Source of the DNA: Candidatus Eiseniibacteriota bacterium
Lineage (GTDB): Bacteria; Eisenbacteria; RBG-16-71-46
Assembly: GCA_031364845.1 (NCBI GenBank)
Contig: JANLWX010000056.1
Coordinates: 1-47,134 of the forward strand
Direction: 5' to 3'
Length of the DNA: 47,134 bases
Shown here: in pieces, positions 3,224 through 26,521 of the stretch
Numbering within the stretch: position 1 is the stretch's first letter
How the letters are laid out: each line of letters opens with the position of its first letter
The notes under the pieces: model-generated
What the model saw: only the letters and a program-made list of their open reading frames with translations
Told to the model about the DNA's origin: nothing
Databases searched by the model: none
Program-made: the position numbers and the translations under genes

Positions 3224-6708
<3,485 letters not shown>

Positions 6709-8348: not shown

Positions 8349-8693
8349 CTATTCGACGTGAACCGTGCCCTTGTACATGTCCATCGCGCACGCGTAGACG
8401 AGATCGCCCGACTTGGCCGGCGTGAACGTGATCTCCACTTCCTGATTGAGCGGCAGTGGCTGGTTGATGTTGTGTTCCTTCATCACGACTTCGGTGGCGC
8501 ACGTGCGATCGGTCGTGCGCTTCACCAGCATCGTGACCGGCTGGCCGGCTTTGACGTTGACGACGGCGGGCTCGAAGCCCTGTTCGGTGACCGTGATCGA
8601 GACGCGCTGCGCGGTGTCGGTGGCGGGCTTGGAGCCGCACGACGACAGAATGGCGACGAACAGCGTGAGGCAGAGGGCGAGCAGGGTGCGCAT
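8349..8693 (-). CDS. Cupredoxin-domain lipoprotein (CupA-like copper chaperone)
   Basis: Lipobox LSSC; GFEPAVVNVKAGQPV, TCATEV and YACAMDMYKG motifs; GAGGAG RBS; last gene of the cus-like operon. Confidence 0.85.
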   Translation of the reverse strand: MRTLLALCLTLFVAILSSCGSKPATDTAQRVSITVTEQGFEPAVVNVKAGQPVTMLVKRTTDRTCATEVVMKEHNINQPLPLNQEVEITFTPAKSGDLVYACAMDMYKGTVHVE

Positions 8694-8803
8694 GGGATGA
8701 CTCCTCGGTGTAGGTGAAGGATGGAACGGGAACGAGAATAGCGCCGATCGCGCCGCGTCCGAAGTCGCTCGCGGGATCGGTTTGATGGACGGTGTTCGAG
8801 CGC

Positions 8804-11800
8804 TCATGCGGCCTCGCGATTCCGCGCGAGTTCGCGACGCAGCTGCGACCAGCGCCAGTACGTGTAGATGACCGGAATGATCTCGAGCGTCAAGAACGCC
8901 GAGGTGAACAGGCCGCCGATCATGGGTGCCGCGAGCCGTTTCATCACGTCAGCGCCCGAGCCGGTCGCCCACAGCAGCGGCACCAGGCCGATCATCGTGG
9001 TCGCCACGGTCATCAGCTTCGGGCGCACGCGCTGGACCGAGCCTTCGAGCGTCGCATCGATGATGTCGTCGAGGGTGCGGATCAGCCCTTCGCGTTTGCG
9101 CCGCTGGTAGGCGACGTTGAGATACACGAGCATCATCACGCCGGTCTGCGCGGCGAGCCCAACCAGCGCAATGATGCCGACCCACACGGCGGTCGATAGG
9201 TTGTAGTGCAGCAACGCCAGCAGCCACACGCTGCCGACCAGAGCGAACGGCACCGACGCCATCACGATCAACGACTCGGTCAGACTGCCGAAGCTCATGT
9301 AGAGCAGCATCAGGATGACGGCGAGTGCCAGCGGAACTACGATCGCCATGCGGGACTGCATCGCCTGCATCAACTCGTACTGGCCCGTCCAATGGAGCGA
9401 GTATCCGGCGGGCAGTTTCAGTCCGCGCGCGACCGCGCGCTTGGCGTCGTCGACGTAGCCGCCGATGTCGCGGCGCGCGGCATCCATGTCGACATAGACG
9501 TAGCCCGCGAGCATTCCGTTGTCGTCACGGATCATCGGCGGCCCGGTGACGATGCGCAGGTCGGCGACCTGACCCAGCGGAACGTGGCCGCGCACGTTCT
9601 CCTCGTAAGCGGGCACTGCCGGTGCACCGGTCGGTCCGGAACTCAGAGATCCCGATGACGGCATCGCGCCGCCGATCGCGGAGCCGCCGGGTGAGCCGCC
9701 ACCCATCGCGCCGCCGCCCATGGCACCTCCGTCCGCGTTCATGCCATCGCCGCCCGATGTGCCGCTCGCGGCGGCGCCGCGCGGTTGCCCGGCGCCCATC
9801 GCGCTTCCACCCATTGCGCTCCCCTCCATCGAACCCGCGCCGGTCGCGCCGGTTGCCGCCGCCGCGCCGGAGCCGCCGCCACCGCCCGCCGGCAGCGGAA
9901 TCAACGTGCGCCTCAGTTGCTCCAGGTTCTGCCGCAACTCCTGCGGATAGCGCACGCTGATCGTGAACCGGTTGCGGCCTTCGACCGCCACTTCGATCGG
10001 CTCGCCGCCGATCGCGGCTTCGATCACGTCCTGCACGTCACCGACCGTGAGTCCGTGGCGTGCGAGCGCCTGACGGTCGGGAACGATGTCGAGATAGAAG
10101 CCGCCGGTGTTGCGATCGGAGTACACGCTGCGCGTCGCGGGCACGTTCGAGAGCAGCCGTTCCAGATCCATGCCGATGCGCTCGATCGTGTCGAGGCTCG
10201 CGCCCAGCACCTTCACGCCGATCGGAGTGCGAATGCCGGTCGAGAGCATGTCGATGCGTGCTTTGATCGGCATGGTCCACGCGTTGGTCCATCCCGGGAT
10301 CTGCATGCGGCGATTGAGATCGGCGACCAGCTCGTCCCACGTCATGCGCCGCCGATCGGGCCACAGCGGACGCAGGGCCGGTCGCATCCAGCGTGGCAGC
10401 GTGCTCGAATACCAGCGCGGCACGTAGATCGTCCGCCACTCTTCGCGCGGCTTCAACTGCACCACGGTCTCCACCATCGAGAGCGGCGCGGGATCGGTCG
10501 GGGTTTCGGAGCGGCCGGCCTTGCCGAACACGCGCTTCACCTCGGGCACCGCGCGGATCATGCGATCTTGAAGCTGCAGATAGCGCTTCGACTCTTCGAT
10601 CGAGATGTTGGGAAACGTGGTCGGCATGTAGAGCAGGTCGCCCTCGTTGAGCGGCGGCATGAACTCGTTCCCGAGCCGTGCCGCCATCGGGATCGCCGAC
10701 AGCACGGCGGCGAGCCCGATCGCAATCGTGGTCTTCGGGTTCTTGAGTGCCACCCACGCAAACGGGCGATACACCGCGATCAGCGCGCGCGACACCGGAT
10801 GATCGGCCTCGTGACGTATCTTGCCGCGAATCAGCAGCGTCATCAGCGCCGGCGCCACCGTGATCGACACCAGCGCCGCGAAGCCCATCGCGAATGTTTT
10901 GGTCCATGCGAGCGGTGTGAACATGCGCCCGCCCTGTCCGTTCAAGGCGAAGATCGGCAGGAACGCGACCGTGATGATGAGCAGCGCGAAGAATGTCGGA
11001 GGGCCGACCTCCTTCGCCGCCTCGATCAGCACGCGAGCGCGGTTGGCTCCCGGTGGAGCGGTCTCCAAGTGCTTGTGCCCGTTCTCGACCAGCACGATCG
11101 CGGCGTCGACCATCGCGCCGATCGCGATCGCGATGCCGCCGAGGCTCATGATGTTCGAGTTGATTCGCAGGAAGTACATCGGAACGAACGCGAGCCCGAC
11201 CGCGAGCGGCAGCGTGAGCACCGGAACCAGCGTGCTGCGCAGGTGCAGCAGGAACACGAGGATGACCAGACTGACGACGATCATCTCCTCGACCAGCGTG
11301 TGCCTCAGCGTCTTGATCGCGCGATGGATCAGGTCCGAACGGTCGTAGACGATCTGCACCGTGACGCCTTCAGGGAACGACGGCTGGAGCTCGGCGATCC
11401 GTCGCTTCACGCGCTCGATCACGGCGAGCGCGTTCTCGCCGTAGCGCATGACCACGGTGCCGCCGACGGTTTCTCCGATGCCGTCCAGGTCCGAGACGCC
11501 GCGGCGGATGTCGGGCCCGAACGACACCGTGGCGACGTCGCCGATCCGCAGCGGCGTGCCGGTGCGCGGATGCGCGCCCAACCCGATCGAGCGCAGATCC
11601 GCGAGGTCCTTCACGTATCCGCGTCCACGCACGAAGTATTCGCGGCCCGACATCTCGATCACGCGCCCGCCGACGTCGGAGTTGCTGCGGCGGATGGCGC
11701 CGGTGACCTCGCCCAACGTGAGTCCGAGCGCGCGCAGCTTCGCCGGGTCGATCTCGACCTGATATTGGCGCTGGTAACCGCCGACCGAGGCGACTTCGGC

Positions 11801-12322
11801 CACGCCGGGCACGCTCGCGAGCTGATAGCGCAGGTTGAAGTCCTGGAACGTGCGCAGATCCGCCAAGTCGTGCTTGCCGCTGCGATCGACGAGCGCGTAC
11901 TGGAACACCCAGCCCACCGAGGTCGCATCGGGGCCCAACACAGGATTTACGTCCTGCGGCAGGCGCGAGCGGATGGTGCTCATGTATTCGAGCACCCGGC
12001 TGCGCGCCCAGTAGAGATCGGTGCCTTCCTTGAAGATCACGTAGACGAAGCTCATGCCGAACATCGACTGGCCGCGCACGGCTTCGATCCGCGGCGCGCC
12101 CAGCAGTGACGATACGATGGGATAGGTGACCTGGTCCTCGACCAGATCGGGGCTGCGTCCCATCCACTCGGTGAACACGATCACCTGCGGATCGGAGAGA
12201 TCGGGGATCGCATCGAGCGGCACGTTGCGGATCGCGACGAACGATCCCAGCACCGCGAACGCCGTGAAGATGAACACGAGTGTGCGGTGGGTGGCGCAGT
12301 ATTCGATGATGCGCGCGATCAC
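8804..12322 (-). CDS. cusA: CusA-type heavy-metal (Cu+/Ag+) RND efflux permease
   Basis: LDAIPDLSDPQVI and AMVDAAIVLVEN; Met-triad equivalents LYMPT, PLSMVET and RIDMLST. GTG start overlaps the cusB stop. Confidence 0.95.
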   Translation of the reverse strand: MIARIIEYCATHRTLVFIFTAFAVLGSFVAIRNVPLDAIPDLSDPQVIVFTEWMGRSPDLVEDQVTYPIVSSLLGAPRIEAVRGQSMFGMSFVYVIFKEGTDLYWARSRVLEYMSTIRSRLPQDVNPVLGPDATSVGWVFQYALVDRSGKHDLADLRTFQDFNLRYQLASVPGVAEVASVGGYQRQYQVEIDPAKLRALGLTLGEVTGAIRRSNSDVGGRVIEMSGREYFVRGRGYVKDLADLRSIGLGAHPRTGTPLRIGDVATVSFGPDIRRGVSDLDGIGETVGGTVVMRYGENALAVIERVKRRIAELQPSFPEGVTVQIVYDRSDLIHRAIKTLRHTLVEEMIVVSLVILVFLLHLRSTLVPVLTLPLAVGLAFVPMYFLRINSNIMSLGGIAIAIGAMVDAAIVLVENGHKHLETAPPGANRARVLIEAAKEVGPPTFFALLIITVAFLPIFALNGQGGRMFTPLAWTKTFAMGFAALVSITVAPALMTLLIRGKIRHEADHPVSRALIAVYRPFAWVALKNPKTTIAIGLAAVLSAIPMAARLGNEFMPPLNEGDLLYMPTTFPNISIEESKRYLQLQDRMIRAVPEVKRVFGKAGRSETPTDPAPLSMVETVVQLKPREEWRTIYVPRWYSSTLPRWMRPALRPLWPDRRRMTWDELVADLNRRMQIPGWTNAWTMPIKARIDMLSTGIRTPIGVKVLGASLDTIERIGMDLERLLSNVPATRSVYSDRNTGGFYLDIVPDRQALARHGLTVGDVQDVIEAAIGGEPIEVAVEGRNRFTISVRYPQELRQNLEQLRRTLIPLPAGGGGGSGAAAATGATGAGSMEGSAMGGSAMGAGQPRGAAASGTSGGDGMNADGGAMGGGAMGGGSPGGSAIGGAMPSSGSLSSGPTGAPAVPAYEENVRGHVPLGQVADLRIVTGPPMIRDDNGMLAGYVYVDMDAARRDIGGYVDDAKRAVARGLKLPAGYSLHWTGQYELMQAMQSRMAIVVPLALAVILMLLYMSFGSLTESLIVMASVPFALVGSVWLLALLHYNLSTAVWVGIIALVGLAAQTGVMMLVYLNVAYQRRKREGLIRTLDDIIDATLEGSVQRVRPKLMTVATTMIGLVPLLWATGSGADVMKRLAAPMIGGLFTSAFLTLEIIPVIYTYWRWSQLRRELARNREAA

Positions 12323-13689
12323 CGATGGCCTCGATGATCCGGTGCTTGGGATGCGCCCATGCCGGAGATCGCGGCCTTGAGCCGGCTCTCCGAATCGATC
12401 AGGAACGAAGCGCTCGCGACCACCGTGTCGCCGACCGCGACGCCGCGCAGGATCTGCACGTAGTCGCCGTCGTCGAGGCCGATGTCGACCGCGCGCGGCT
12501 CGAACGTGCCGCCGGCGCGTGCGAGGAACACGTAGTTGTGCTCGCCCGCCCGCACCAGCGCTTCCGCGGGCACCGAGGGCACGGCACCTCCGCGGTGCGC
12601 GATCATCACGCGGCCGTACATCCCGGGGCGCAGCGCGCCGTCGCGGTTGTCGAGCGTGAAGCGTACCTTGATCGTGCGGGTCTCGCCCGAGACGGTCGGA
12701 TACAGGAATTCGACCCGCGCCTGAAACGCGCGTCCGGGCAGCGCGTCCGCCGTGAAGCGCGCGACGTCGCCGAGACGCACACGCCCGAGATCCATCTCGT
12801 ACACATCCGCCACCACCCACACGCGCGAGAGGTCGGCGATCGTCATCAGCGGTGTGTCGGGCCCCACGCTCTGACCTTCGGTGACCGTGCGTTCGAGCAC
12901 GGTGCCCGAGACCGGCGACGGCAGCGTGAGCCGCGTCGAGGCTTTGCGCTCGCGCTCGAGACGCCGGATCTCGGCATCGGGAACGCCGAACAACTTCATC
13001 CGTTCGCGCGCCGCGGCCGGCCCAGGTGCTTCGTGATCCATGGCCGTGTTCGCTGCCGACGAGTCGCGCATCGCATGCGGCGCCGAGGTCTCGATCAGGA
13101 ATTCCTGCTCGGACTGGAACAGTTCGGGACTGTAGATGGTGACGAGCGGCGCGCCCGCGCGCACGGCTTCGCCGGTGCGATTCACGTGCAGGCGCTCGAC
13201 CCAGCCTGCAACGCGCAGTTGCACTCGGCGCAGACGGGATTCGTCGGGCGTGATGAACCCGACCAACTCGGCACCGCTGCCGAGCGCGCGCGCCTCGACG
13301 CGCGCGGTGCGCACGCCGATCATCTGGATGCGCTCCGTCGTGAGATGCACGGTCGTGAGCCCCGGCACGTCGCCGACGCCTTCCGGCGCGATACCGCCCG
13401 GTGTGCCGGGCGGGATCGGTTCGAGCGTCATGCCGCAGATCGGACATTCGCCCGGACGATCAGAGGTGTAAGTCGGATGCATCGGGCAATGGAATTTGGC
13501 CACTCCCGTCGTCGTCGCCGATCCCGCGCGCGGCGCGCGCGAGTTGAACCACGCGGCACCCGCGATCACCGCGACCAGCAGCAGGCCACCGAACATCACC
13601 CAGCGCAGCACGTTCATCGCGCCGGCGCCCGGCGGAGGCGCGTGAAGTCCGCTGCCGCGCGCGGGCTCTGGACTTCGATCGTCGATCAT
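12319..13689 (-). CDS. cusB: CusB-type RND periplasmic adaptor with heavy-metal-binding domain
   Basis: N-terminal TM, HCPMHP...CPICGMTL, YSPELFQSEQE, LRPGMY and FLIDSES. Confidence 0.92.
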   Translation of the reverse strand: MIDDRSPEPARGSGLHAPPPGAGAMNVLRWVMFGGLLLVAVIAGAAWFNSRAPRAGSATTTGVAKFHCPMHPTYTSDRPGECPICGMTLEPIPPGTPGGIAPEGVGDVPGLTTVHLTTERIQMIGVRTARVEARALGSGAELVGFITPDESRLRRVQLRVAGWVERLHVNRTGEAVRAGAPLVTIYSPELFQSEQEFLIETSAPHAMRDSSAANTAMDHEAPGPAAARERMKLFGVPDAEIRRLERERKASTRLTLPSPVSGTVLERTVTEGQSVGPDTPLMTIADLSRVWVVADVYEMDLGRVRLGDVARFTADALPGRAFQARVEFLYPTVSGETRTIKVRFTLDNRDGALRPGMYGRVMIAHRGGAVPSVPAEALVRAGEHNYVFLARAGGTFEPRAVDIGLDDGDYVQILRGVAVGDTVVASASFLIDSESRLKAAISGMGASQAPDHRGHR

Positions 13690-15008
13690 CGTGATCCCCC
13701 TTCGTTGGATGCATCGCCGATCGCGACGCTGATCAGGTCGAACCGCCCGGTTACCGTGACCAGCGCGGCTTGCGCGCGGGCGAGTGAGGCGCGCTCGTCG
13801 TTCTCGCGCAGCTCGCTCATATAGAGCGCATGAGCCGTCTGGAACAGCGACAGTAGATCGGAGGCGCCCGCCGAGTAGCCGCTCCATGCCGCATCGAGCG
13901 CGCGGTGCTGCACCGCGAGCACCGTGTCCGCGACCAGACGCACCGAGCGCTCCGCGGCCAGCGATCGCGCGTGGGCGATCGTCACGGTGCGCTCGAGATC
14001 GAGCGTGGTCGCGGCGCGCTCGGCGGTGGCGGCGCGCGCCATCGCATTCATTTCGCGCGCTTCGGCGAATTCGCGCGAGCGCGCGAACAGCGGGAGCATG
14101 AAGCCTGCCGAAGCACTGAACATGTTGTCCTGCTCCGTCGGCCCGAGATGCGCCTGCTCGGGCAACAGGTCGGCGCGGAATCCGTACGACGCCTTCAACT
14201 CGAGATCGGGCCACGCCATGCGCCGCGCGGCCCGTGCCCCGAGTTCGTAGCGCTTCACGTTCGCATCGCGCACGGCGAGCTGCGGGTTTCCGAGCGCGGC
14301 CTCGCGCCACGGCCGCGGATCGGCGCCCACCGTGATCACCGGAGGCGGCTCGAGCGGTCCGAGTGCCACCGATGCCGGAGCACCGCTGAGTGCTGCGAGA
14401 CCGGCATGCGCGGCGGCGCTCTCCGCGGTGAAGTCCGCGGCGTCCACGGCGACGCTCGCGGCTTCGGCCTCGGCGCGCAGCACGTCCTCGAGGCGCCCGC
14501 GTCCCGCGGAATAGCGGGCGCGCGCGGCCTCGACCATGCGCCGCATGACTCCGCGATGCCGCTCGGCCACCGCCATGCGTTCGTCGGCGAAGTACGCGTT
14601 CGCGTACTGCTCCCATGCCTGGCCGAGACGCTCCCAGCGCATCGCCGAGAGCATCGCGGTGTCGGCGCTCGCCGCCGCTTCGCCGGAACGGCGCGAGAGG
14701 CGATTGGCGCCAAACACCGGCACGCGCTGCGTGATGCCCACCATTTTCATCGTCATCGGGTCCATATCAAACCGACGGTTGGTCGGCACGTTCACGACGC
14801 CGAATTCGATCATCGGCGAGCTCCAGCTTCCGGCCCGCACCGCGCGCTCACGCGAGGCGGTGGCCTCCCAGCGCGCCGCACCGAGCTCCGGATTGCGACG
14901 CAGGACATCGCGCAGCACCTCGGGCAGGCCGACCGCGCCCGCGGCCGGCGGCAGCAACAGGCCGAGTGTGAACAGGACGGCCGCGATCTCGCGGACTCGT
15001 GAACGCAT
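13686..15008 (-). CDS. TolC-family outer-membrane efflux protein (CusC-like)
   Basis: Signal peptide, OEP repeats (RNPEL.., ENDERASLARAQAAL) and Met-rich DMDPMTMKM. Stop overlaps the cusB ATG. Confidence 0.88.
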   Translation of the reverse strand: MRSRVREIAAVLFTLGLLLPPAAGAVGLPEVLRDVLRRNPELGAARWEATASRERAVRAGSWSSPMIEFGVVNVPTNRRFDMDPMTMKMVGITQRVPVFGANRLSRRSGEAAASADTAMLSAMRWERLGQAWEQYANAYFADERMAVAERHRGVMRRMVEAARARYSAGRGRLEDVLRAEAEAASVAVDAADFTAESAAAHAGLAALSGAPASVALGPLEPPPVITVGADPRPWREAALGNPQLAVRDANVKRYELGARAARRMAWPDLELKASYGFRADLLPEQAHLGPTEQDNMFSASAGFMLPLFARSREFAEAREMNAMARAATAERAATTLDLERTVTIAHARSLAAERSVRLVADTVLAVQHRALDAAWSGYSAGASDLLSLFQTAHALYMSELRENDERASLARAQAALVTVTGRFDLISVAIGDASNEGGSR

Positions 15009-15224
15009 GAATGGACTCCTCGATGGAGACGGATGGCGTCGCCGGCTCAGCGAGTCGCCGGTGCGTGGCGGACACGGTGGAGCGGAGTACGGCATTCGTC
15101 CAGAGCACGGCGCAAAATGCGCCACGCAAAGGCTAGTCGTCGTGAGTGTCTGGATGGGAATCGCAAACCACCGGAGATTCCGTGATCACACACGTTCGCG
15201 AACCGAACGCGTGAACGACGGAAT

Positions 15225-15683
15225 TCAGATACGCGGTGGAGCGCGCAGCGCGAGCGGGCCTTTGGCAGGAGATGCCAGAGGCCGGGCGCGGAGATCCGTT
15301 CGAGGAGGGTGGGAGGGAATGCGGGCCGGCCCCGACATCGCGACCGGCGCCGTTTCGGCGCACGCGAAAGGAACCGGCGTGACGCACAGATCCTTGGCGA
15401 CGACGGGGACCGAGACTTCAGCGAGGCCCATGCAGCACGGCGAGCCCGGCGCCTGCACGGGATGGTTGCGTTGGTGTCCCGCGGCATTGTTTCCGCAACA
15501 GGACTTGGCCGACGCCTTCGAGGCCGAGGCCGACAGCGGCGCCTCGTGACACATCAGACCCGCGCGGCTCGCCGAGGACGAGGCGTACGCGCTCACGATG
15601 CAGTAGTTGTTGCCGAACAGGAACAGCAACGACGCCAGCACCGTGTAGAGCCGTGAGACCGGTTTGAAGCGGACACGTTTCAT
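15225..15683 (-). CDS. Cys-rich secreted leader protein with C-terminal RAPP arrest motif (CruR/CutF/DUF2946-like)
   Basis: 152 aa: basic plus hydrophobic N-terminus, MCH, SCCG, PCCM, Pro-rich tail ending LRAPPRI-stop. Lies directly upstream of the efflux operon. Confidence 0.8.
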   Translation of the reverse strand: MKRVRFKPVSRLYTVLASLLFLFGNNYCIVSAYASSSASRAGLMCHEAPLSASASKASAKSCCGNNAAGHQRNHPVQAPGSPCCMGLAEVSVPVVAKDLCVTPVPFACAETAPVAMSGPARIPSHPPRTDLRARPLASPAKGPLALRAPPRI

Positions 15684-15908
15684 GTTGATCTCGGTTATCG
15701 GCCTGCGGCGTTCGACCCGTGAGCACAGGAGTCGCCGCCGGCCGATTGTGGCAGGAGCGGGCGCCGTCACCAAGGGGAAGTTGCGAAGCCACGCAAGGAC
15801 TTCGTCAAGGACGAAGCCCCTCGACATCACCAGAGTCCTGAACCCCGCCCCGGGGTCCGGGTGGCCGGGTCCGGTGTCGCTTCCCGGTGCGGGTGTAGGA
15901 TGCTCCCG

Positions 15909-17129
15909 ATGCCCACTCCAACTGCAGCCCCACCCCCGAAGCCGCCCGGGGTGTGGCCCGATCCCTACCGGATCCTGTTTCCGATTGGGGCCGTGTTCGC
16001 CCTATGGGGCGCGATCGTGTGGCCGATCGCCTGGGCGCTTGGATTGCCGCAGGCCGCCGTCACCCATCGAGCGCTCATGATGCAGGGGTTCGAGTTGTCG
16101 TTCGTGCTGGGATTTCTCCTCACGGCGATCCCGGGCTTCACCGGCGGACAACGGTTTCACCCGTTGGAACTGGTCGTCGCCGCGACCCTGATGTGCGGGT
16201 TGGCCGGCTCGGTCGCCGCCGGCACGCCCGCGCCGGCATCGGCGTTCGCCGCCGCCGCCATCGCATGGGCAGCCGCCGCGATCGCGAGGCGCGTGATCGC
16301 CAAACGCGTGCTGCCGCCCGAAGAGTTCGCGTTCGTCGGTCTCGGACTCGCGCTCGGCTTCGCGGGCACGCTGTGGCAGGCGTGGTCGGGCTTCGGCACG
16401 GCTCCGATCGCAGAGCCGGTGCCCTACTTCGCACAGCGACTGGTGTCGCTCGGGATGATGCTGCCGCTGGTGCTGGGTATCGGAGGTCTGCTGGTGCCGG
16501 CGTTCGCCGGCATCCCGAATCCACTCGCGATTCCGGGGGTGGCGAAAGCGCACGAGCGCAGCGGCCGGCGCGGGTTGTACATGATCCTCGCGCTGATCCT
16601 CGGATCGTCGTTCGTCTTCGATGCTCGGGGACAGACGCGCGAGGGCGCGATCGCGCGCGCCCTGGTCGCCACCGTGATGCTGCTGTGGGTGTGGAAACTG
16701 CCGGTGCGCGCGGCCCGCAACGATACGTTCTCGGTGGCGCTGCGCCTCGCGGGCGTGTGCGTGCTCATCGGCGCGTGGCTCGCCGTCGTGCTGCCAGCAC
16801 ACTCGCTCGCGGGATTTCACGTGATGTTCATCGGCGGCTTCGGCTTGCTCACACTCGGGATCGCCACGCGCGTCGTGGTATCGCACGGGCGCCATCCGTC
16901 CGCTCAAGAGCGATCGCTGCTGCGCGGATGGCAGGTCGCCGCACTGCTGCTCGCGGCCGCAACGCGCGCCGCGGCGGAATCGCTTCCGATCTACCGCGCG
17001 CCGCTGCTGGGTGTGAGCGGTCTGCTGTGGACCGTGGCGTGGGTCGCGTGGCTGTGGGGAGCGCTGCCGCTGATCCTGCGCATCGCGCACGCGGGCGTTC
17101 TGATTCCGGTCCCGGCCATCCGCCGCTGA
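15909..17129 (+). CDS. nnrS: NnrS family membrane protein
   Basis: PYRILFP, H.ALMMQGF..SFVLGFLLTAIP.FTG, H..FIGG and ATRVVVSHG; multi-TM. Confidence 0.87.
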   Translation: MPTPTAAPPPKPPGVWPDPYRILFPIGAVFALWGAIVWPIAWALGLPQAAVTHRALMMQGFELSFVLGFLLTAIPGFTGGQRFHPLELVVAATLMCGLAGSVAAGTPAPASAFAAAAIAWAAAAIARRVIAKRVLPPEEFAFVGLGLALGFAGTLWQAWSGFGTAPIAEPVPYFAQRLVSLGMMLPLVLGIGGLLVPAFAGIPNPLAIPGVAKAHERSGRRGLYMILALILGSSFVFDARGQTREGAIARALVATVMLLWVWKLPVRAARNDTFSVALRLAGVCVLIGAWLAVVLPAHSLAGFHVMFIGGFGLLTLGIATRVVVSHGRHPSAQERSLLRGWQVAALLLAAATRAAAESLPIYRAPLLGVSGLLWTVAWVAWLWGALPLILRIAHAGVLIPVPAIRR

Positions 17130-17879
17130 TCAGGTTTCCTCGTCTCGACCCTCGGCGATCTGCTCCAGCGCCGCGAGCGATGGGACCACGAAGCGCTTCT
17201 CGCCCGTGATCAGCACGCCCTCGCGGCCCCACCGTGACATCAGGCGGATCGCCGACTCGACCGTGGTGCCGACCATCTCGGCGATCTCCTGGCGCGAGAG
17301 CTGGAGCGGGATCTCGATGCCTTCGGCGGTGGTGCGCCCCATCCGCTCGGCGAGCGTCAGGAACAGGCGCGCAATGCGGATTTCGACCCGCTGTCCACGC
17401 ATCTCACTGAGTTTGCGGGTGAGCGCGACCGTGAGCCGCGTGAGTTCGCGAATGATCGCGCGCGCGAAGTCCGGATTGCGCTCGAGCAGCTCGAAGTAGT
17501 CCGCGCTCGGGATCCTCACGAGCGTGGTCGGCTCCATGCACGCGGCACTCGCCGGATAGGGAATGTTGTTGTAGACCGCGATTGCGCCGACCGGCTCGCC
17601 GACGCCGAAGATCTCGAGGATCACATCGCCGCTCTCGGTGTGGCGCACGATCTTCACCTGGCCCCGCACGATGAGCGTGAGGTGATCGGCGGGATCGCCG
17701 GCGCGCCACAGGTACTCGCCGCGCTCGTAGTCGCGCAGCACCGCCACTCGTGCGACGCGCTCACGATCCTGGGTCGAGAGCCCGCGAAACATCGGGAGCG
17801 ATCGCAGCGCGGTCGCCAGCCGCTCCGCCGCGACTTCGGCGCGATCGAGTTTGACGGGCGGATCGGGGTGCTCGGCCAC
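17130..17879 (-). CDS. Crp/Fnr family regulator (DNR/NnrR-like, no Fe-S Cys cluster)
   Basis: cNMP-like domain and HTH LSRQEIAEMVGTTVESAIRLMS. GTG start with GGAGG RBS; only one Cys. Confidence 0.9.
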   Translation of the reverse strand: MAEHPDPPVKLDRAEVAAERLATALRSLPMFRGLSTQDRERVARVAVLRDYERGEYLWRAGDPADHLTLIVRGQVKIVRHTESGDVILEIFGVGEPVGAIAVYNNIPYPASAACMEPTTLVRIPSADYFELLERNPDFARAIIRELTRLTVALTRKLSEMRGQRVEIRIARLFLTLAERMGRTTAEGIEIPLQLSRQEIAEMVGTTVESAIRLMSRWGREGVLITGEKRFVVPSLAALEQIAEGRDEET

Positions 17880-18015
17880 CTTTGCCTCCGGGGTCACGCT
17901 TTGCGTGGCGTCCGTGCCGTGTGGCCCGCGGCGCGCGCAATCTCGAGACCAGTGCCCGCGACAATGCACCGCGGAACCGGTTTCAGGAAAGCGCGATCAC
18001 CCAATCGGCACCCGA

Positions 18016-18031
18016 TATGACCCACGTCATA
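18016..18031. promoter_or_regulatory. Putative Crp/Fnr-family binding site TATGAC-N4-GTCATA
   Basis: Perfect 6-4-6 palindrome with FNR-box spacing, between the regulator and the nos operon. Confidence 0.6.
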
Positions 18032-18106
18032 CCCCGCGGTCCGCCACCGGGCGATGCTGTCTTCGAAGGCGGGAGGCATCGGGTCTCCCGCACGCCGGAG
18101 TGCCCG

Positions 18107-18643
18107 ATGTCCGCTGAATCAGCGTTCGAACCCTTCCGCACCGACCACCGCCAGCTCCTGGCGTGGCTCGATGAAATCGAGACCGTGATGCAGGTCGGCG
18201 GACGCTACGGCATCACCCCGCTGACGGCGGGTGCGCTCGATGAGCTGGTCGATTTCGTCGAAGCCCAGTTCGCAACCCATATGAGAGCCGAGGAGGAAGT
18301 TCTCTACCCGGCGCTCGAGGAGCTGCTTCCCGAGGCGGCACCGAGTCTGATTCCGCTGCGCGCGCAGCACGGCGAGCTGCGCGCGATGCTGTTGCGGCTG
18401 CGCGCGGTGCTGCGCGAACCCTCGACCTCCGCCCGCGACGAGCAGGTCGCGGTCCAGGTGCGCGACTTCGTGGACCTGCTTCGCATTCACATTCACAACG
18501 AAGAGGCGGCGGTGTTCGGGGTCGCGGAGCGCGTGCTGTCACCTGCTGAGATCGGCCGCATCGATGCCGGCATTACCGCTCACTTCTGGCGCACACGGCG
18601 CCCGATCGAGGTTCGATCCACGACGAAAGGACGCGCTTCATGA
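18107..18643 (+). CDS. Hemerythrin/HHE cation-binding domain protein
   Basis: DH, HMRAEEEVLYP, QH and HIHNEE motifs; GGAG RBS; stop overlaps the cytochrome c start. Confidence 0.85.
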   Translation: MSAESAFEPFRTDHRQLLAWLDEIETVMQVGGRYGITPLTAGALDELVDFVEAQFATHMRAEEEVLYPALEELLPEAAPSLIPLRAQHGELRAMLLRLRAVLREPSTSARDEQVAVQVRDFVDLLRIHIHNEEAAVFGVAERVLSPAEIGRIDAGITAHFWRTRRPIEVRSTTKGRAS

Positions 18644-19113
18644 CCCTTCGCACCGGAGCACACATGGTCTCGTTCCTCGCTTTGCTTCCGCTGCTGTCCG
18701 GGTGCAGCGGCGGCGCCAAGGAGACGAACGCATCGGGTTCCTCGCCCGCCGCCAGCACGGCAGCCGTGTCGAAGTACGACGCGGGTCCGCGCGCCGGAGA
18801 GCAGCCGATCGACGAACACCTCGCCAAGAGCGGCGAGCAGTTGTTCAAGGACAAGGGGTGTTCGGCGTGCCACGCCTTCGGCGCGAAGCTGTCGGGTCCG
18901 GATCTCAAGGGCGTCTCGATGCGCCGTACGGCGCTGTGGATGGAGAACCAGATCCTTCACCCCGAAGTGATGGTGAAGGAAGACCCGATCTCGCACGAGT
19001 TGTTCGCCAAGTACGCGCTTCAGATGACGAATCAGCACCTCACGCCGCCCGAAGCGAAGGCGGTCATCGAGTACCTCAAGCATCAGGACCACGAGCAGAC
19101 AGAAGTTCATTGA
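18640..19113 (+). CDS. Monoheme cytochrome c lipoprotein (nos-associated)
   Basis: Lipobox LSGC, CSACH heme motif, GPDL and distal Met (LQMTNQ). Confidence 0.9.
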   Translation: MTLRTGAHMVSFLALLPLLSGCSGGAKETNASGSSPAASTAAVSKYDAGPRAGEQPIDEHLAKSGEQLFKDKGCSACHAFGAKLSGPDLKGVSMRRTALWMENQILHPEVMVKEDPISHELFAKYALQMTNQHLTPPEAKAVIEYLKHQDHEQTEVH

Positions 19114-19135
19114 AGGATCAAAGGGGGGAGCGAAG

Positions 19136-21097
19136 ATGAAACGCTGGATCTTGATGTTGGTCGCCATCGGCACTCTGGCAGGGCTCGCATCGCAGTTGCC
19201 GGGTTGCACGACAACCCGCGGCATGACGGGTTCGTCGGCCGCGGAGAAGGTATACGTGAAACCGGGTGAGCTCGATACGTATTACGGGTTCCTCTCGGGC
19301 GGACACCACGGAAATATCTATGTGTACGGGTTCCCGTCCTGCCGGCACATCACGACGATTCCGGTGTTCACTCCCGAGCCCGCGGTCGGGTATGGCTTTG
19401 ACGAGGCCTCGAAGGAGATGCTGGCTGGCAGGAGGTGGGGCGATGCGCATCACCCGGGCCTGTCCGAGACGGACGGCGACTACGACGGACGGTGGTTGTT
19501 CATCAACGACATGGTGAGCGCGAGCATCGCGCGCATCGACCTTGCGGACTTCAAGACCCGTCAGATCTACGGGCCGATCCCGAATCTCTCGGCGGCCCAC
19601 GCCTGCCCGTTCCCGACACCCAACACCGAGTATGTGTTCGCGGCGTCGCGATTCTCGGTGCCGGTGCCCAACCGCGTGGTCAAACTCGAAGACTACGGCA
19701 AGGGGTTCAACGGAATCATCGCCGGCATCAAGGTGGATCCCACGAGCGGCACGATGTCGATGGGCTTCGAGATCCTGATGCCACCGTTCGATTGGGACCT
19801 GGCGGACGCCGGCAAGGGCCCGAGCCACGGCTGGCAGTTCTTCACCTGCTACAACAGCGAGATGGCCTACGACTCACTTGAAGTGAAGGCCTCGCAGCAC
19901 GAGATGGACTTCGTCGCGGCGGTCGACTGGCGCGCCGCCCAGAAGGCGGTCGATGAGGGCAAGGCGACGATGATCGGCGGCGCGCCGGTGCTGGATCCGG
20001 CCACGGTCAAAGGAATCGTCTATCTCGTGCCGGTGCCCAAGAGTCCGCACGGTGTCGACGTGGATCCCTCGGGTCAGTACGTGTGCGCTTCCGGAAAACT
20101 GCAGGCCGAAGTGACCGTGCTCAGCTTCGCCAAGATCCAGGCGGCGATCGCCGCCGGCAAGTTCGACGGCGAGCGCGGCGGCGTGCCGGTGTTGAAGCAC
20201 GAAGACTGTCTCGAAGCGAAGGTCGCCGTCGGGCTCGGTCCGCTGCACACGCAGTTCGACGACAAGGGCAATGCCTACACCTCGCTGTTCTTGGATTCGC
20301 AGATCGCCAAGTGGAAGGTCGGTCCGCCGTGGACCGTCACCGACAAGATCGATGTCTACTATTCGATCGGTCACCTGATGGCATCCGAAGGCGACACGCG
20401 CCACCCGACCGGCGAATACGTGGTCGCGCTCGACAAACTGTCCAAGGACCGCTACCTCAACGTCGGCCCGACGCATCCCGAGGCGTCGCAGTTGATCGAT
20501 CTGCGCGGACCGAAGATGGAGCTGTTGTACGACTTCCCGACCTATCTCGAGCCGCACTACGCGCAGATGATCCGGGCCGAGAAGATCAAGCCGTTCACGG
20601 TCTACCCGCTCGACAAGAACACCAATCCCCGCGCGATCAAGCGCGCCGAGGATGCGCGAATCGAGCGCAAGGGGAACCGGGTCGACGTGTACATGCTCAC
20701 GGTGCGCACGCATTTCACTCCCGATCGGCTGCGCGTGAGCGAGGGCGATGACGTCTACTTCCACGTCACCAATCTCGAGCAGGACGACGACATCGCGCAC
20801 GGGTTCGGAATCCTGTGGTCGAACTGCAACATGCAAATCGAGCCGGGAGAGACGAAGACGATGCACTGGAAGGCCGAAAAGCCCGGTGTGGTTCCGTTCT
20901 ACTGCACCAACTTCTGCAGCGCGCTGCACCAGGAAATGCAGGGCTACATCGAAGTCGGTGCGAAAGGCGCATCGGTTGCGGCGCTGCAGCGTCCTGATCC
21001 GCGCAAGGTGGCCGAAGTCGCGGCTGTGATTCTCGAAACCACCCGTGTCGGCGGCCCGGTCCAGGGCGGTGATCTCGCACCGGAGGGCTCGCGATGA
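19136..21097 (+). CDS. nosZ: Nitrous oxide reductase, clade II (Sec-dependent)
   Basis: CuZ His motifs DAHH, AAH, PHG, GPLH, GH and EPH; CuA IAHG and CTNFCSALHQEM. No twin-arginine motif. Confidence 0.97.
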   Translation: MKRWILMLVAIGTLAGLASQLPGCTTTRGMTGSSAAEKVYVKPGELDTYYGFLSGGHHGNIYVYGFPSCRHITTIPVFTPEPAVGYGFDEASKEMLAGRRWGDAHHPGLSETDGDYDGRWLFINDMVSASIARIDLADFKTRQIYGPIPNLSAAHACPFPTPNTEYVFAASRFSVPVPNRVVKLEDYGKGFNGIIAGIKVDPTSGTMSMGFEILMPPFDWDLADAGKGPSHGWQFFTCYNSEMAYDSLEVKASQHEMDFVAAVDWRAAQKAVDEGKATMIGGAPVLDPATVKGIVYLVPVPKSPHGVDVDPSGQYVCASGKLQAEVTVLSFAKIQAAIAAGKFDGERGGVPVLKHEDCLEAKVAVGLGPLHTQFDDKGNAYTSLFLDSQIAKWKVGPPWTVTDKIDVYYSIGHLMASEGDTRHPTGEYVVALDKLSKDRYLNVGPTHPEASQLIDLRGPKMELLYDFPTYLEPHYAQMIRAEKIKPFTVYPLDKNTNPRAIKRAEDARIERKGNRVDVYMLTVRTHFTPDRLRVSEGDDVYFHVTNLEQDDDIAHGFGILWSNCNMQIEPGETKTMHWKAEKPGVVPFYCTNFCSALHQEMQGYIEVGAKGASVAALQRPDPRKVAEVAAVILETTRVGGPVQGGDLAPEGSR

Positions 21098-21714
21098 ACT
21101 GGCTTGCCGGAAGGTTCGGCGCCGCCGAGCGGCGTCTCATCGCAATCGCCGCGTTGGTGCTGATGCCGGTGTATTTCCTTCCGGTGCTGCCGGTGTGGCA
21201 GATGAGGATGTGGGCCCCTCAGTATCGCGAGGGGCTCACCCTCACCATCTACTCGAATACGATTCGTGGTGACATTCAGAAAATCAACACGCTCAATCAC
21301 TACGTCGGGATGAAGGCGATCACGCCCGACGACTTCCGCGAGTTCACCTACATGCCGCAGCTCCTGTCGCTGTTCGGGGTGATGGCGCTGCTGGCCGTGG
21401 CGTTCAACCGGCGGTGGATCGCCGCACTCGGGTGGCTCGCCTTTACCGCGTTCGCGGTCTACATGTTTCGTGACTATGCGATGTGGCTGTGGCGCTACGG
21501 GCACGAACTCGACCCGCGCGCTGCGATCAAGCTGCCGACCTTCATGCCGCCGATCATCGGCTACTCGCGCATGGCCAACTTCAAGGTGCTGAGCCTGCCG
21601 GGTTTGGGCACTCTGCTGCTCGGCGGAGCCTGGCTGCTCGGCCCGATCATCGTGTGGCTCGATCGTCGGTCCCACGCGCGCTCCGCCGCCGATGCCGCAT
21701 TGAAGGCGAGCTAA
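21094..21714 (+). CDS. nosB: NosB-like membrane protein of clade II nos clusters
   Basis: APQYREGL, INTLNHYVGM, YGHELDP and PPIIG; directly after nosZ. Confidence 0.8.
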   Translation: MNWLAGRFGAAERRLIAIAALVLMPVYFLPVLPVWQMRMWAPQYREGLTLTIYSNTIRGDIQKINTLNHYVGMKAITPDDFREFTYMPQLLSLFGVMALLAVAFNRRWIAALGWLAFTAFAVYMFRDYAMWLWRYGHELDPRAAIKLPTFMPPIIGYSRMANFKVLSLPGLGTLLLGGAWLLGPIIVWLDRRSHARSAADAALKAS

Positions 21715-21717
21715 AGC

Positions 21718-23148
21718 ATGCGTCCGCGATGGATGGCTCGGGTATTCGGACTGTGGATGCTGGCGGCCGTGGTCGCCACGTCCGCCGCGGTCGTGCCGGC
21801 GCTTGCCGCGCCGCGCACGGTCCGCGTGCCCGCGGGAAGCGCCGCCGCCGCGGCGCTCGCGGGTGCCGCGCCCGGCGACACGATCGTGCTCGGGGCGGGA
21901 ACCCACCGCGGGCCACTGCGCATCGCCGCGGCGATCACGTTGCGTGGCGAGTCCGGTGCCATCGTGGATGGCGCCGGCACCGGGAGCGTGATCATCGTGG
22001 CCAGCGATGACGCGGCCATCGAAGATCTCGAAGTCCGTGGCAGCGGTCACGACGTGATGAAGGTGGATGCTGCGTTCCAGGTGCTGACCAGCGCGCGCGT
22101 GCGCATCCGCCGGGTCGTCATTCATGACGTGCTCTACGGCATCTACGCCGAGCGCGCGACCGCGATGATCGTCGAAGACTGCACGATCGCCGGCCGCGTG
22201 AAGCCGTTGGACGAATCCGGCACCGGCAACGGAATCCACCTGTGGTATTGCGCGGGGGGAACGTTGAAAGGCAATCGGGTCGAGCGTTTCCTCGATGCGA
22301 TCTACCTCTCGTTCGCCAACGACATCGTGGTCACCGACAACCTGCTGCAGTGGAACGGCCGCTACGGCCTGCATACGATGTACTGCCAGACCAACCGGCT
22401 CGAACGCAACACGTTCACGTTCAATGTCGCCGGGTGCGCGCTGATGTTCTCGAACGGACTCGTGATCGACCACAACGACTTCGTTCACAACCGCGGCTCG
22501 CGCACCTACGGTCTGCTGCTGCGCGACTGCTCGGCCGGGACGTTCACCGACAACCGGCTCGCCGACAACACCGTTGCCGTGTTCATGGACGGCTCGAATA
22601 GAAACCGGTTCCGCGGCAACCTGATCGAGAACAACGGCTGGGGGCTCTTGATGTTCTCATCGTGCGCCGGCAATGAATTCGCGTCGAACAACTTCATCCA
22701 AAACGACTATCCCGTGGCACTCGACATGCGCCGCACCAACAACCGGTTCGACGACGGCCGCACCGGGAACCATTGGAGCGAGAACGCCGCCTACGATCTC
22801 GACGACGACGGGATCAGCGACATCCCCTATGCGCCGGTGAGCGCGTTCGCATTCGTCTCCAAGCAGTATCCCGACCTCACGATCCTCGCGAAGAGTCCCG
22901 CGGTGGCGGCACTCGCGGTCGCCGAGCGCGTGTTCCCGGCGTTGCGCCCGAGCGAAGCCGTGGATCGGTTTCCGCTGGTGAGCCCCGCGCGCGCGACATC
23001 GTCGGATCGTGCGGGCATTCCGCTATCGACCGGATCGTCGTCGCGGGGTGTGGGCGTCGGATACGTGTTGCTGCTCGGTCTCGGCGTGTTCGGCATGAGC
23101 GCGGGGCGTGGGCGGCTTCCATCGGCCGCGCCGGGAGAGACCTCATGA
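21718..23148 (+). CDS. nosD: NosD copper maturation protein
   Basis: Beta-helix repeats, GNGIHLW, RYGLHTMY and GNHW...YDLDDDGISD.PY. Confidence 0.92.
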   Translation: MRPRWMARVFGLWMLAAVVATSAAVVPALAAPRTVRVPAGSAAAAALAGAAPGDTIVLGAGTHRGPLRIAAAITLRGESGAIVDGAGTGSVIIVASDDAAIEDLEVRGSGHDVMKVDAAFQVLTSARVRIRRVVIHDVLYGIYAERATAMIVEDCTIAGRVKPLDESGTGNGIHLWYCAGGTLKGNRVERFLDAIYLSFANDIVVTDNLLQWNGRYGLHTMYCQTNRLERNTFTFNVAGCALMFSNGLVIDHNDFVHNRGSRTYGLLLRDCSAGTFTDNRLADNTVAVFMDGSNRNRFRGNLIENNGWGLLMFSSCAGNEFASNNFIQNDYPVALDMRRTNNRFDDGRTGNHWSENAAYDLDDDGISDIPYAPVSAFAFVSKQYPDLTILAKSPAVAALAVAERVFPALRPSEAVDRFPLVSPARATSSDRAGIPLSTGSSSRGVGVGYVLLLGLGVFGMSAGRGRLPSAAPGETS

Positions 23149-24095
23149 TCTCCGTGCGCGGGCTCGTGAAGCGCTACGGCGACATCGTCGCCGTCAACGA
23201 TCTGTCGTTCGAAGTCGAGCGCGGTGAGACCTTCGCGCTGATCGGCCCCAACGGCGCCGGCAAGACGACGACACTCAAGCTGTTGCTTGGACTCGCGAAT
23301 CCCGACCGCGGAACGATCGCGATCGGCCGCGACGGACGCCCTCCGCGCGATGCGCGCGCGCGTCATGAACTCGGCTACGTCCCGCAGAGCGTCGAGTTTC
23401 CGTCGGGGCGCACCGTCGCCGAAGTGCTGACGTACTTCTCGGACCTCCGCGGCCTGCCGCGGACCGCGGTGACGCGCGCACTCGAGCGCGTCGGCCTCGC
23501 GCCCACCGCCGCGCGCCGCGCGAGCGAGTTGTCGGGTGGCTACACGCAACGCCTGTCGCTGGCGCAGGCGCTGCTCGGCGATCCCGCGTTGCTGGTGATG
23601 GACGAGCCCACCGCGAGCCTCGACCCCGAGGCGACGTGGGAGTTCCGCACGCTGATCGAGCAGCTCCAGCGCGAAGGAACCACGATCCTCCTGTGCTCGC
23701 ATCTGCTCGCCGAAGTCGAACGCGTTGCCGACCGCGTGCTGATCCTGATGGATGGACGCGGTGCGGCACTGGAACGCATGGATGCGCTGCGCGCGCGGCA
23801 GGCGAACGCCACGCGTCTCGCTGTGGACGTCGGCGATGCCGTCGAACGCACGACCGCGGTGCTCACCGGACGCGGCATCGTCGTGGATCGCGAAGCCTCG
23901 GGGCGCCTCGTGTTCGACGCGGCCGATGGACGCGGACCGCAGGCGCTCGAGTCGCTGCAGCAGGCCGGTGTCGCGGTCCGCGGGTTCGAAGTCATTCGGC
24001 CGACCCTGGAAGAAGTGTTCTTAGAGGTCGTGCGTCGCGATCCTTCGCGACCGGTCGATTCCTCGGTTAACGGCTCGCCTCGGGGGCAGCGATGA
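23145..24095 (+). CDS. nosF: ABC transporter ATP-binding protein NosF
   Basis: GPNGAGKT, LSGG, LVMDEP and SH motifs; nos context. Confidence 0.9.
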   Translation: MISVRGLVKRYGDIVAVNDLSFEVERGETFALIGPNGAGKTTTLKLLLGLANPDRGTIAIGRDGRPPRDARARHELGYVPQSVEFPSGRTVAEVLTYFSDLRGLPRTAVTRALERVGLAPTAARRASELSGGYTQRLSLAQALLGDPALLVMDEPTASLDPEATWEFRTLIEQLQREGTTILLCSHLLAEVERVADRVLILMDGRGAALERMDALRARQANATRLAVDVGDAVERTTAVLTGRGIVVDREASGRLVFDAADGRGPQALESLQQAGVAVRGFEVIRPTLEEVFLEVVRRDPSRPVDSSVNGSPRGQR

Positions 24096-25374: not shown

Positions 25375-25426
25375 AGGTTATGAGGCGCAGATTGTGGTGG
25401 CGTGAGAGGTGCAGTCATTGGCCCTC

Positions 25427-26521
25427 ATGGACACCTCGCTGGCGTCGTTCGCACCTCCGTTCTGCCCCCGATCATCCTGTCGCTACCATCGTTGCGCCGA
25501 TGGTTGGCAATGGAAGCGCCACGGCAGTTTCACACGCCAGTGTGCGCCCCGCGTGATCCCGCGGTTTCGATGTGTCCACTGCGGTGTCACCTTCAGCAGC
25601 CAGACCTTCTCCACCAGCTACTATCTCAAGCGCCCCGAGTTGCTCGAGCCGCTGTTCCACCGCCTGCTTGCGGGCTCCTGTTATCGCCAGATTGCACGCG
25701 AAGCGCGCTGCGCTCCGACCACGGTCATGGGTCAGGCGGCGCGCCTGGGGCGGCATGCGCTGCTCTATCTCACGCTCCACCGGCCCGATCGGGTGCGCGA
25801 ACCGCTCGTGATCGACGGCTTCGAGAGCTTCGCCTACAGCCAGTTCCAGCCCTTGCACCTGAACAACGCGGTGGGATCGGGATCCCACTTCGCCTACGGG
25901 TTCACGTACTCGCCGCTGCGACGCAAGGGCCGTATGACCGCATCGCAGAAGCGAACCCGTGACGCACTCGAGCTGCGCTACGGCCGGCCCAACCCCAAGT
26001 CGATCGAGCTCGAGGTCGCCGAGTTGCTGCGGATCGCAGCGCCCGGAGAACAAGTGCTGACTGTGCGCTCCGATGAGCATCCGGCCTATCCGCGCGCCTT
26101 TATGCGGGTTGAAGGTGTCCGCATTCAGCACGAGCAAACGCCCTCGGTAGCGGCGCGGACCAGCGGGAACCCGCTGTTCCCGGTCAACCTGTTGGACCTG
26201 CTGCTGCGGCACAACAGCCCCAATCACAAGCGCGAGACGATCGCCTACTCCAAGCGCCACCAGAGCGTGATCGAACGGGCGGCACTGCTGATCCTGTGGC
26301 GCAACTTCAACAAGCCCTTCAGCGAGAACCATGGCGGTGGAACGCCGGCCATGCGGATCGGGTTGTGCAGGACACCGCTCAGCCCCAAGGCACTTCTAAG
26401 AGAACGGCTGTTCGCAACGAGGGTCGCGTTACCGCAACGATGGGAGGAGTATTACCGGCGGCTGGTTCCGACGATGGGAATCCGTCGGCCGCGGGTTCAT
26501 GCGCTGAAGCGCGCGTTCTAG
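25427..26521 (+). CDS. IS1-like transposase (single ORF)
   Basis: Zn ribbon CPRSSC...CVHC, HTH RQIAREARC, IDGFES, RSDEHPAY, KRETIAYSK and TPAM. Confidence 0.82.
   Translation: MDTSLASFAPPFCPRSSCRYHRCADGWQWKRHGSFTRQCAPRVIPRFRCVHCGVTFSSQTFSTSYYLKRPELLEPLFHRLLAGSCYRQIAREARCAPTTVMGQAARLGRHALLYLTLHRPDRVREPLVIDGFESFAYSQFQPLHLNNAVGSGSHFAYGFTYSPLRRKGRMTASQKRTRDALELRYGRPNPKSIELEVAELLRIAAPGEQVLTVRSDEHPAYPRAFMRVEGVRIQHEQTPSVAARTSGNPLFPVNLLDLLLRHNSPNHKRETIAYSKRHQSVIERAALLILWRNFNKPFSENHGGGTPAMRIGLCRTPLSPKALLRERLFATRVALPQRWEEYYRRLVPTMGIRRPRVHALKRAF

Follow-up and report, generated by a model that had tools for sequence, protein, structure and literature searches.

The window analyzed here, a stretch of 47,134 nucleotides from a Candidatus Eiseniibacteriota genome, carries on its reverse strand a short open reading frame (15225..15683) that precedes a copper/silver efflux operon; all leader, intergenic, and operon coordinates below refer to this strand. 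Translation from 15683 to 15225 gave the 152-residue protein (P0001) described in the initial annotation, with a signal-like N-terminus, the motifs MCH (residues 44-46), SCCG (61-64), and PCCM (82-85), and LRAPPRI directly before the stop codon. Its codon bias (third-codon-position GC, 0.79) is similar to that of the adjacent genes, and the reading frame is a real gene. The product is predicted to be secreted, Cys/His-rich, and mostly unstructured; an AlphaFold model of low confidence (mean pLDDT, 60) contains only two helices (residues 10-24 and 27-33), the rest being disordered. By eye, the N-terminus consists of a basic N-region, a 12-residue hydrophobic stretch, and A-Y-A at residues 32-34, and the predicted Sec signal peptide read from it (residues 1-34; 15582..15683) includes a conserved motif, F-x-x-G-x-N-Y-C (15600-15623). 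C28, the last residue of this motif, was ruled out by eye as a lipoprotein cysteine (N-N-Y-C, without a lipobox). Further along lie the candidate metal ligands C45-H46 (15546..15551), a first vicinal cysteine pair, C62-C63 (15495..15500), a second pair within P82-C83-C84 (15432..15440), two additional cysteines, C100 and C108 (15360..15386), and the predicted arrest motif R147-A148-P149-P150 (15234..15245). No CxxC motif occurs in P0001.

After an intergenic region of 216 nt (15009..15224), the leader is followed by genes co-oriented with it, as had been claimed. These encode an outer-membrane efflux protein of the CusC/TolC type (13686..15008; PF02321), a CusB-like membrane fusion protein with a heavy-metal-binding domain, HMBD (12319..13689; PF16576 and PF19335), a CusA-type RND pump (8804..12322; TIGR00914, 1070 bits), and, at the operon end, a cupredoxin-domain protein (8349..8807; PF13473). 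The pump protein scored 975 bits against Escherichia coli CusA, its closest solved relative, and 445 bits against ZneA. Aligned to structure 3t51, three of its methionines match E. coli CusA positions 573, 623, and 672 (assuming a tag offset of 7 that we infer). We take these positions to be the Cu(I)/Ag(I) site, and presume the numbering of the triad likewise. Judged by sequence, then, the downstream pump is a Cu(I)-type CusCBA system. The window CusA also has, at query positions 810-911, a Gly-, Ala-, Ser-, and Met-rich insertion of ~100 residues, which is absent from E. coli CusA and is possibly a Met-rich copper-capture loop.

The arrangement is shared by relatives of the leader. In 20 loci fetched up to 15 kb, cusB and cusA were present in all 20, tolC (by tblastn) in 18, and a cupredoxin gene within the fetched stretch in 14; two of the three CusA Met sites were found in 20/20, and the third matched the search pattern in 13/20. 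Among the 30 loci of the family, the gene after the leader starts 105-383 nt on and is outer-membrane-factor-like by eye in 28, the exceptions being one locus in which the cupredoxin gene comes first and one (L007) whose next gene is too short to identify.

On the other side of the leader, and divergent from it, lies a nitrous-oxide reduction cluster (15861-24095) composed of nnrS, a Crp/Fnr regulator gene on the opposite strand, and genes for hemerythrin, cytochrome c, a Sec-type clade II NosZ (19136-21097), NosD, and an ABC ATPase. The initial annotation had coupled the leader to this copper-hungry NosZ. We rejected that coupling: nosZ or nnrS occurs in none of the 20 extended relatives within the fetched stretch and cytochrome c in one, and a close relative (L056) has different genes upstream of its leader.

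The annotated absence of CusRS and CueR from the window held, in that no CusR, CusS, or CueR was found among the scanned window ORFs (14 + 10 + 27, of 159 listed). In addition, in the genome, which is 97% complete, nothing exceeded the cut-off for CueR or that for CusR/CopR, and CsoR was without a match; response regulators of other kinds are numerous, and there is a weak match of the MerR type. Post-transcriptional control is likely to be the form that copper regulation of a CusCBA pump takes in this uncultured phylum, where CueR, CusR, and CsoR are not recognizable. A promoter and terminator scan revealed no intrinsic terminator and no promoter, a weak sigma-70-like candidate noted by eye (TTGGTG, 17 nt, TG-C-CACAAT; 15745..15773), whose -10 part is shared with loci L055 and L056, being below threshold. 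A separate promoter-like pattern, TT(G/C/T)(A/G)C-N7-G(G/A)ACA, 18-19 nt, CCGATA(C/T)T, was seen in L002-L030 at 10-60 nt upstream of the leader start; it occurred in 14 and 15 of 30 loci, compared with 1 and 5 among 710 background windows, ends a few to ~15 nt before the leader ATG, and is reduced to CCGATAAC in the window (15694-15701). It suggests a nearly leaderless mRNA made with an unknown sigma factor or activator.

A phmmer search with P0001 over 1.84 billion representatives returned 18 hits, in the alignment of which F21, G24, C28, C45, C63, C83, C84, R147, P149, and P150 are invariant. In a larger set of 48 aligned rows, collected by similarity to P0001, the residues R147, P149, P150, C83, C84, C28, and G24 (i.e., RxPP, CC, and GxxxC) are invariant in 48/48, F21 and the C62 column are conserved in at least 90%, and C45 is no longer invariant. 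A first family profile matched 30 of 201 phylum genomes, with 29 of 86 in the family of the window and none elsewhere; the 48-row profile matched 55 of 206, with 50 of 88 in that family and 4 outside. The leader family probably belongs to Ca. Eisenbacteria. One alignment (A4) omits L013, L025, L026, L029, and L030; a second match to it in the genome, on contig C31, was dropped as having neither a signal nor RAPP.

As far as sequence searches go, the family is unannotated. Pfam and NCBIfam searches of P0001 and the 18 members gave no family match, and the HMM search against DUF2946 (PF11162) that had been proposed matched 0/18 members and, in the genome, contig C201 and not the leader locus. 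The atlas recognized P0001 as protein-like, with its 30 nearest clusters unnamed, and listed a DUF2946 cluster only as a far neighbor (23% of members; 110 shared features). The model HYC_CC_PP (NF047658) would by its name have the same order of elements (xYC after a hydrophobic stretch, CC, and terminal PP), a likeness of architecture only, given that it had no match at E<=1 in the genome and none for the 18 members. A metagenome scan with P0001 detected no relative among 601 candidate stretches.

Terminal R[AG]PP on its own is at chance level in this GC-rich genome (68 of 33,264 frames, vs 36-74 for five control words), and the case for a leader therefore rests on conservation; together with a hydrophobic stretch and 2 Cys, the word occurred in 5 frames vs 0-2 for the control words. 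Conservation is indeed what we found. RAPP followed by 2-3 residues to the stop was seen in 29/30 loci, and the vicinal CC proposed to stand in place of CxxC is likewise retained, as the row counts above indicate. The exception to RAPP, L025 (G005:C43), ends in W-P-P-L-S with no Arg, keeps the anti-Shine-Dalgarno (anti-SD) codons CCT CCT CTC, and has a profile match that crosses a TGA; it provides a natural test of the RNA arm against the arrest motif.

The distance between these elements is also conserved. In all 26 loci having both a CC pair and RAPP (a count from which L025, without RAPP, was omitted), the last CC precedes the Arg by 57-64 residues, and in the three single-Cys loci the Cys does so by 60-61; for stored proteins the spacing is 58-62 in 26/26, one of which is a duplicate of the query, and in P0001 it is 62. 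The distance from GxxxC to R runs from ~101 to 124, so that the N-terminal part varies by >20 residues. Some 60 residues would span the ribosome tunnel and the SecY channel. From this spacer, we infer that copper would be sensed at the periplasmic face, as proposed for CutF.

Within the family, P0001, P0003, L055, and L056 group in the tree (support 88/96) and are the sole carriers of C100 and C108, the former 46 residues before R147. L055 and L056 share 67-68% protein identity with P0001. A protein-level family search found no closer genome than 39%, and the subfamily accordingly rests on three DNAs (the window, L055, and L056) plus P0003, available as protein only. The three DNAs differ at 33/90 synonymous sites and by one in-frame 12-nt indel, as expected for a translated gene.

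The leader can be placed next to several known systems. Ozturk 2023 lists 5,334 CutF-like proteins, with RND outer-membrane factors as the first-named and most frequent neighbors (PMC9973294, in excerpt), and the accessible part of Fujiwara 2025 describes small RAPP proteins before metal genes across phyla. The leader fits the CutF-like class in that PP lies within the last 15 residues and same-strand metal-homeostasis genes lie within 1,000 nt (216 nt to the outer-membrane protein gene, then cusB and cusA). Its N-terminus looks signal-like by eye (with a modeled helix at residues 10-24), and Cys/His motifs occur in it, whereas its 152 residues (relatives, 131-156) miss the arbitrary <150-residue filter by 3. 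CutF of Rhodobacter capsulatus and its class share with it a small, probably exported Cys-rich leader, a C-terminal PP, and a same-strand downstream copper gene; CutF has an SD hidden by RNA and a stall proposed to switch expression on, as predicted for part of the present family (PMC9973294; bioRxiv 10.1101/2025.02.05.636593). CutF has CxxxC and a proline run where the window leader has vicinal CC and a true RAPP, and the class has gaps mostly <100 nt in contrast to 216 nt here; the window leader further differs in that its predicted anti-SD is part of the reading frame, 20-23 codons ahead of the stall, and we found no sequence match to CutF. The relation to CutF and CruR drawn in the initial annotation thus stands as a kinship of design, while its novelty is less than was implied, as the 2023 class already includes RND neighbors. 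Clusters of CutF-like proteins in that work (Fig. S6) may include CC-type proteins or the present family.

CruR (Bp2923 of Bordetella pertussis, DUF2946/PF11162) is alike in having RAPP 2-3 residues from the stop, an export signal (predicted for the window leader), a Cys motif at a fixed distance, and a long intergenic region (PMC9426467, in part). It differs, in those excerpts, in its CxxC motif, its spacing of 45 (57-64 in the present family), its role in import (here export), and its Rho termination (here predicted SD masking), besides belonging to PF11162, to which our family had no match. Its arrest is shown in PMC12992588, and it works without its signal (PMC9426467). SecM, ApdA/ApdP, and other RAPP-type arrest peptides have the RAPP core and, by prediction, a signal sequence in common with the leader (PMC7897499, PMC10987492, PMC10951233, and PMC12992588, each in part). 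In SecM and uDF_RQH a stalled ribosome unmasks a downstream SD, as we propose here; so far as these excerpts go, SecM, ApdA/ApdP, and the other RAPP peptides differ in that they monitor secretion and have masking stems local to the stall, and no SD-hiding hairpin is predicted for ApdA/ApdP.

We consider it quite probable that the leader is a metal-responsive arrest leader controlling the pump operon. The gene is real and conserved, and its product is most likely a copper-responsive arrest leader, its stalling and copper response being putative. It is very improbable that the signal is not copper itself but the redox state of the envelope, the load on secretion, or a different thiophilic metal (silver, for example): the vicinal CC pairs do differ from the CxxC and CxxxC tested in CruR and CutF, and leaders with RAPP are found in front of sec, dsbA, and thioredoxin genes too (PMC12992588), but the downstream pump is CusA-type with the Met motifs counted above and is often accompanied by a cupredoxin.

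Copper sensing would then proceed by steps of which several are modeled on CutF and other arrest peptides. A ribosome would stall with P149 in its P site, as in ApdA, ApdP, and CruR, while the nascent chain would be threaded into SecY, and the fixed spacer of 57-64 residues would, at the time of the stall, position the last CC immediately beyond the membrane. In the absence of copper, pulling and disulfide formation would release the stall, as for CutF, and bound Cu(I) would prolong it. Pairing between the 3' end of the leader, when free of ribosomes, and the tolC ribosome-binding site is predicted, and would block initiation. This RNA layer, absent from the earlier reading, likely sets the polarity of the response.

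Across the family, the pairing arm is predicted to be the RAPP codons themselves in about half of the loci, where it would lie beneath the stalled ribosome. The first Pro of PP is encoded by CCT in 18/30 loci, compared with 63 of 1,052 other Pro codons, and the duplex between the last seven leader codons and the downstream SD beats synonymous resampling (p<0.05) in 10/30. Taken together, the leaders also pair better with their own sites than in permuted combinations (p 0.0024, against 0.047, 0.16, 0.40, and 0.39 for control windows), p values that are overstated, as the related genomes are non-independent; own-site pairing shows visible shifts, for instance in L020 and L002. In folding, a footprint on RAPP lowers the cost of opening the site by >1 kcal/mol in 21/30 loci and raises it in 1, and among 29 loci (L008, with its 383-nt gap, being left out) it is the best 30-nt block in 16, with a mean of 3.1 vs at most 1.05 for other blocks. 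Foldings with 180 nt of leader pair the tolC site with the footprint in 15/30 loci and further upstream in 8/30, the site being unpaired with the RAPP footprint in 15/30. Where the RAPP codons are paired with the tolC site, a stall would switch export on, and the in silico results support this polarity well in about half of the loci.

The window leader belongs to the loci in which the RAPP codons are not so paired. Against the tolC site they score -8.0 kcal/mol (p 0.33; rank 28/30), and a ribosome on RAPP leaves the site closed (-0.7, +1.1, and +0.4 kcal/mol in three foldings). Instead, the tolC ribosome-binding region (15016..15034, with GAGGAG at 15021-15016) is predicted to pair with a relocated anti-SD arm, codons P126-P127-R128-T129-D130 (15294..15308), through a helix joining 15307-15300 to 15023-15016 (p 0.98) and 15299-15294 to 15034-15029 (p 0.85). 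The arm sits 56-69 nt (20-23 codons) upstream of the stall P site, and a predicted hairpin (codons 134-143; 15257..15283; predicted in 3/3 subfamily DNAs) lies between the two. The leader class itself is already known; the displaced arm is a new element.

Sequence comparison of the three subfamily DNAs bears on the arm. It begins with three rare codons, CCT CCT CGA (usage 0.04, 0.04, and 0.06), 7 of 17 rare leader codons being common to all three, and its 14 nt are identical in 3/3 despite the divergence at synonymous sites. Similarly, the L055 and L056 gaps have diverged from that of the window, yet CCGT and GGAG are kept at matching places. Using a 21-nt window picked after the helix had been seen, the arm is the best of 147 windows at the window locus and of 151 in L055, with synonymous p values of 0.001, 0.015, and 0.002; a whole-leader duplex test at the window locus was not significant (p 0.61 and 0.44). 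A consensus fold of the three DNAs retains the helix, with no compensatory changes among the 3 sequences; folded as a single sequence, L056 does not form it (pair probability near 0). Contigs from 4 sequencing runs gave no useful coverage of the helix arms. Anti-SD-like words have been reported to act from hundreds of nucleotides away (PMC12697547).

The gap itself is predicted to be structured, with a strong hairpin beginning at the leader stop codon (15224-15177), although the whole-region folding z-score is only -1.0. This bears on a CruR-like alternative in which the long gap would act through termination by Rho or through decay of the mRNA, with SD pairing secondary. The genome encodes rho, the scan above revealed no intrinsic terminator, the subfamily gaps of 216-237 nt compare with 162 nt in CruR, and the window gap contains more C than G (0.35 vs 0.27). 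A highly structured gap is nevertheless unlike a Rho loading site, and the codon bias points to SD pairing, so that we hold this explanation to be quite improbable. A relay model, in which a duplicated GCTCCACCG in the gap swaps partners, was discarded, the SD remaining in its local hairpin in both states.

With the arm 56-69 nt upstream of the stall site, opening at the window locus and in its two close relatives would require either that a queue extend to a third ribosome or that the stalled ribosome strain the loop. Queued bacterial ribosomes are spaced ~27 nt apart (PMC7544508, in excerpt), which would place the third on the arm. At the window locus, with 100-130 nt of leader, the predicted cost of opening the SD is 9.2-10.9 kcal/mol for the free RNA; one ribosome gives 8.9-10.7, two give 10.3-12.5, and three give 4.3-4.5. 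In L055 the cost drops from 8.0-10.0 to 5.2-6.7 with three ribosomes, and in L056 no ribosome setting opens the site in folding. The gain from three ribosomes shrinks to 1-3 kcal/mol when 175-180 nt of leader are included (~1 kcal/mol with 180 nt, 6.5 to 5.4 and 7.0 to 6.2), and after arm removal a fallback local 4-bp hairpin (15028-15016) keeps covering GGAG. Thus, three ribosomes are predicted to open the tolC site where one or two do not, in 2/3 loci and in a context-dependent manner. SD hiding of the CutF style, opened by the stalled ribosome, is by comparison predicted for about half the family, and one ribosome is insufficient at the window. The alternative opener, strain exerted by a stalled ribosome within the loop, would lie beyond folding programs.

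The insufficiency of one ribosome admits an inverted, CruR-like logic in the window subfamily: a lone stalled ribosome would leave the arm locking the tolC site (off), and copper would release the stall, the resumed flow over codons 126-130 holding the site open. With RAPP occupied by one ribosome, the predicted helix is maintained or gains in strength (0.89 to 0.92 at the window locus; 0.38 to 0.79 in L055), C100 and C108 are exclusive to the subfamily, and the 46 residues from C100 to R147 resemble the 45 of the CruR CxxC, where copper is proposed to relieve stalling (PMC9426467, in part). However, the family CC spacing of 62 residues is unchanged in the subfamily, ribosomes that kept initiating during a long stall would pack the leader and expose the site in the absence of copper, and passing ribosomes would cover the arm only briefly; we judge this logic unlikely.

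A further possibility is that a second, EF-P-sensitive pause on the arm, at S124-H125-P126-P127, is the working switch, with RAPP as a backup or queue-builder. In folding, the site is opened by a footprint at P126 as effectively as by three ribosomes (9.2 to 6.7). The 62 residues by which C63 precedes P126 repeat the register of C84 to R147, H-P-P-R-T-D-L is retained by 4/4 subfamily proteins, and a proline run is where CutF stalls, with EF-P in control (bioRxiv 10.1101/2025.02.05.636593). On the other hand, the Arg of RAPP is missing at the corresponding position, the S124-P127 motif is absent from the wider family, and the amino-acid conservation is equally explained by RNA pairing. The second pause is thus quite an improbable switch, although it and release-driven opening remain live rivals of the queue-dependent switch, which is our preferred reading.

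For the window locus, we lean slightly toward a stall that turns expression on. The overall reading, a co-translational copper sensor in which a prolonged stall frees the pump's ribosome-binding site and export is turned on, appears a little better than even. That a queue of three ribosomes is the actual opener is, in itself, doubtful. The genome encodes MutS2, which in Bacillus subtilis reportedly splits collided ribosomes. This counts against the queue reading, as does the statement that E. coli queues are limited, with none seen beyond disomes (PMC8848927). A literature search, in which subscription journals were thinly covered, found no queue-operated bacterial leader, and one for Eisenbacteria and copper found nothing relevant. 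Slightly more doubtful still is a ribosome-counting metal switch with a time-integrating threshold, in which the pump would be translated only after three ribosomes pile up; if true, a bacterial arrest peptide would here send its signal through collision queues and not through the stalled ribosome itself.

The family bears on the way in which RAPP leaders relay a stall to the gene behind them, and on the opposite effects of copper, which prolongs the CutF stall and releases that of CruR. It offers a compact, testable design, with an anti-SD in the arrest codons and a fixed 60-residue ruler, as well as a naturally occurring version whose arm is shifted 60 nt upstream and which has two new cysteines. 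A comparison of both versions would tell whether queues, strain, or flux couple the stall to initiation and how polarity rewires.

Several other loci were noted along the way. The window contains, at 25409-26521 on the forward strand, a 370-residue ORF whose N-terminus is rich in Cys; it matches nothing in Pfam and by eye resembles a transposase. Elsewhere in the genome (G000), another CusA-type operon, of 54% identity, lies on contig C67 (40188-46000, reverse strand), and upstream of it no leader of the present family was seen. On C36 (stop at 818, forward strand), a leader with a signal, Cys, and RGPP lies 170 nt before a lipoprotein gene and an OEP-MFP-CzcA-like operon and gives a weak family-profile match (E 2e-4). 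The C201 sequence (stop at 5591, forward strand) is a His-rich RAPP leader with a weak DUF2946 match (17 bits) that precedes genes for an outer-membrane protein and a Zn/Mn-type ABC importer. Finally, a Cys-rich leader with a signal and RAPP on C34 (stop at 87004, reverse strand) lies 61 nt before a very small secreted Cys-rich ORF, with the SD of which its end is predicted to pair.
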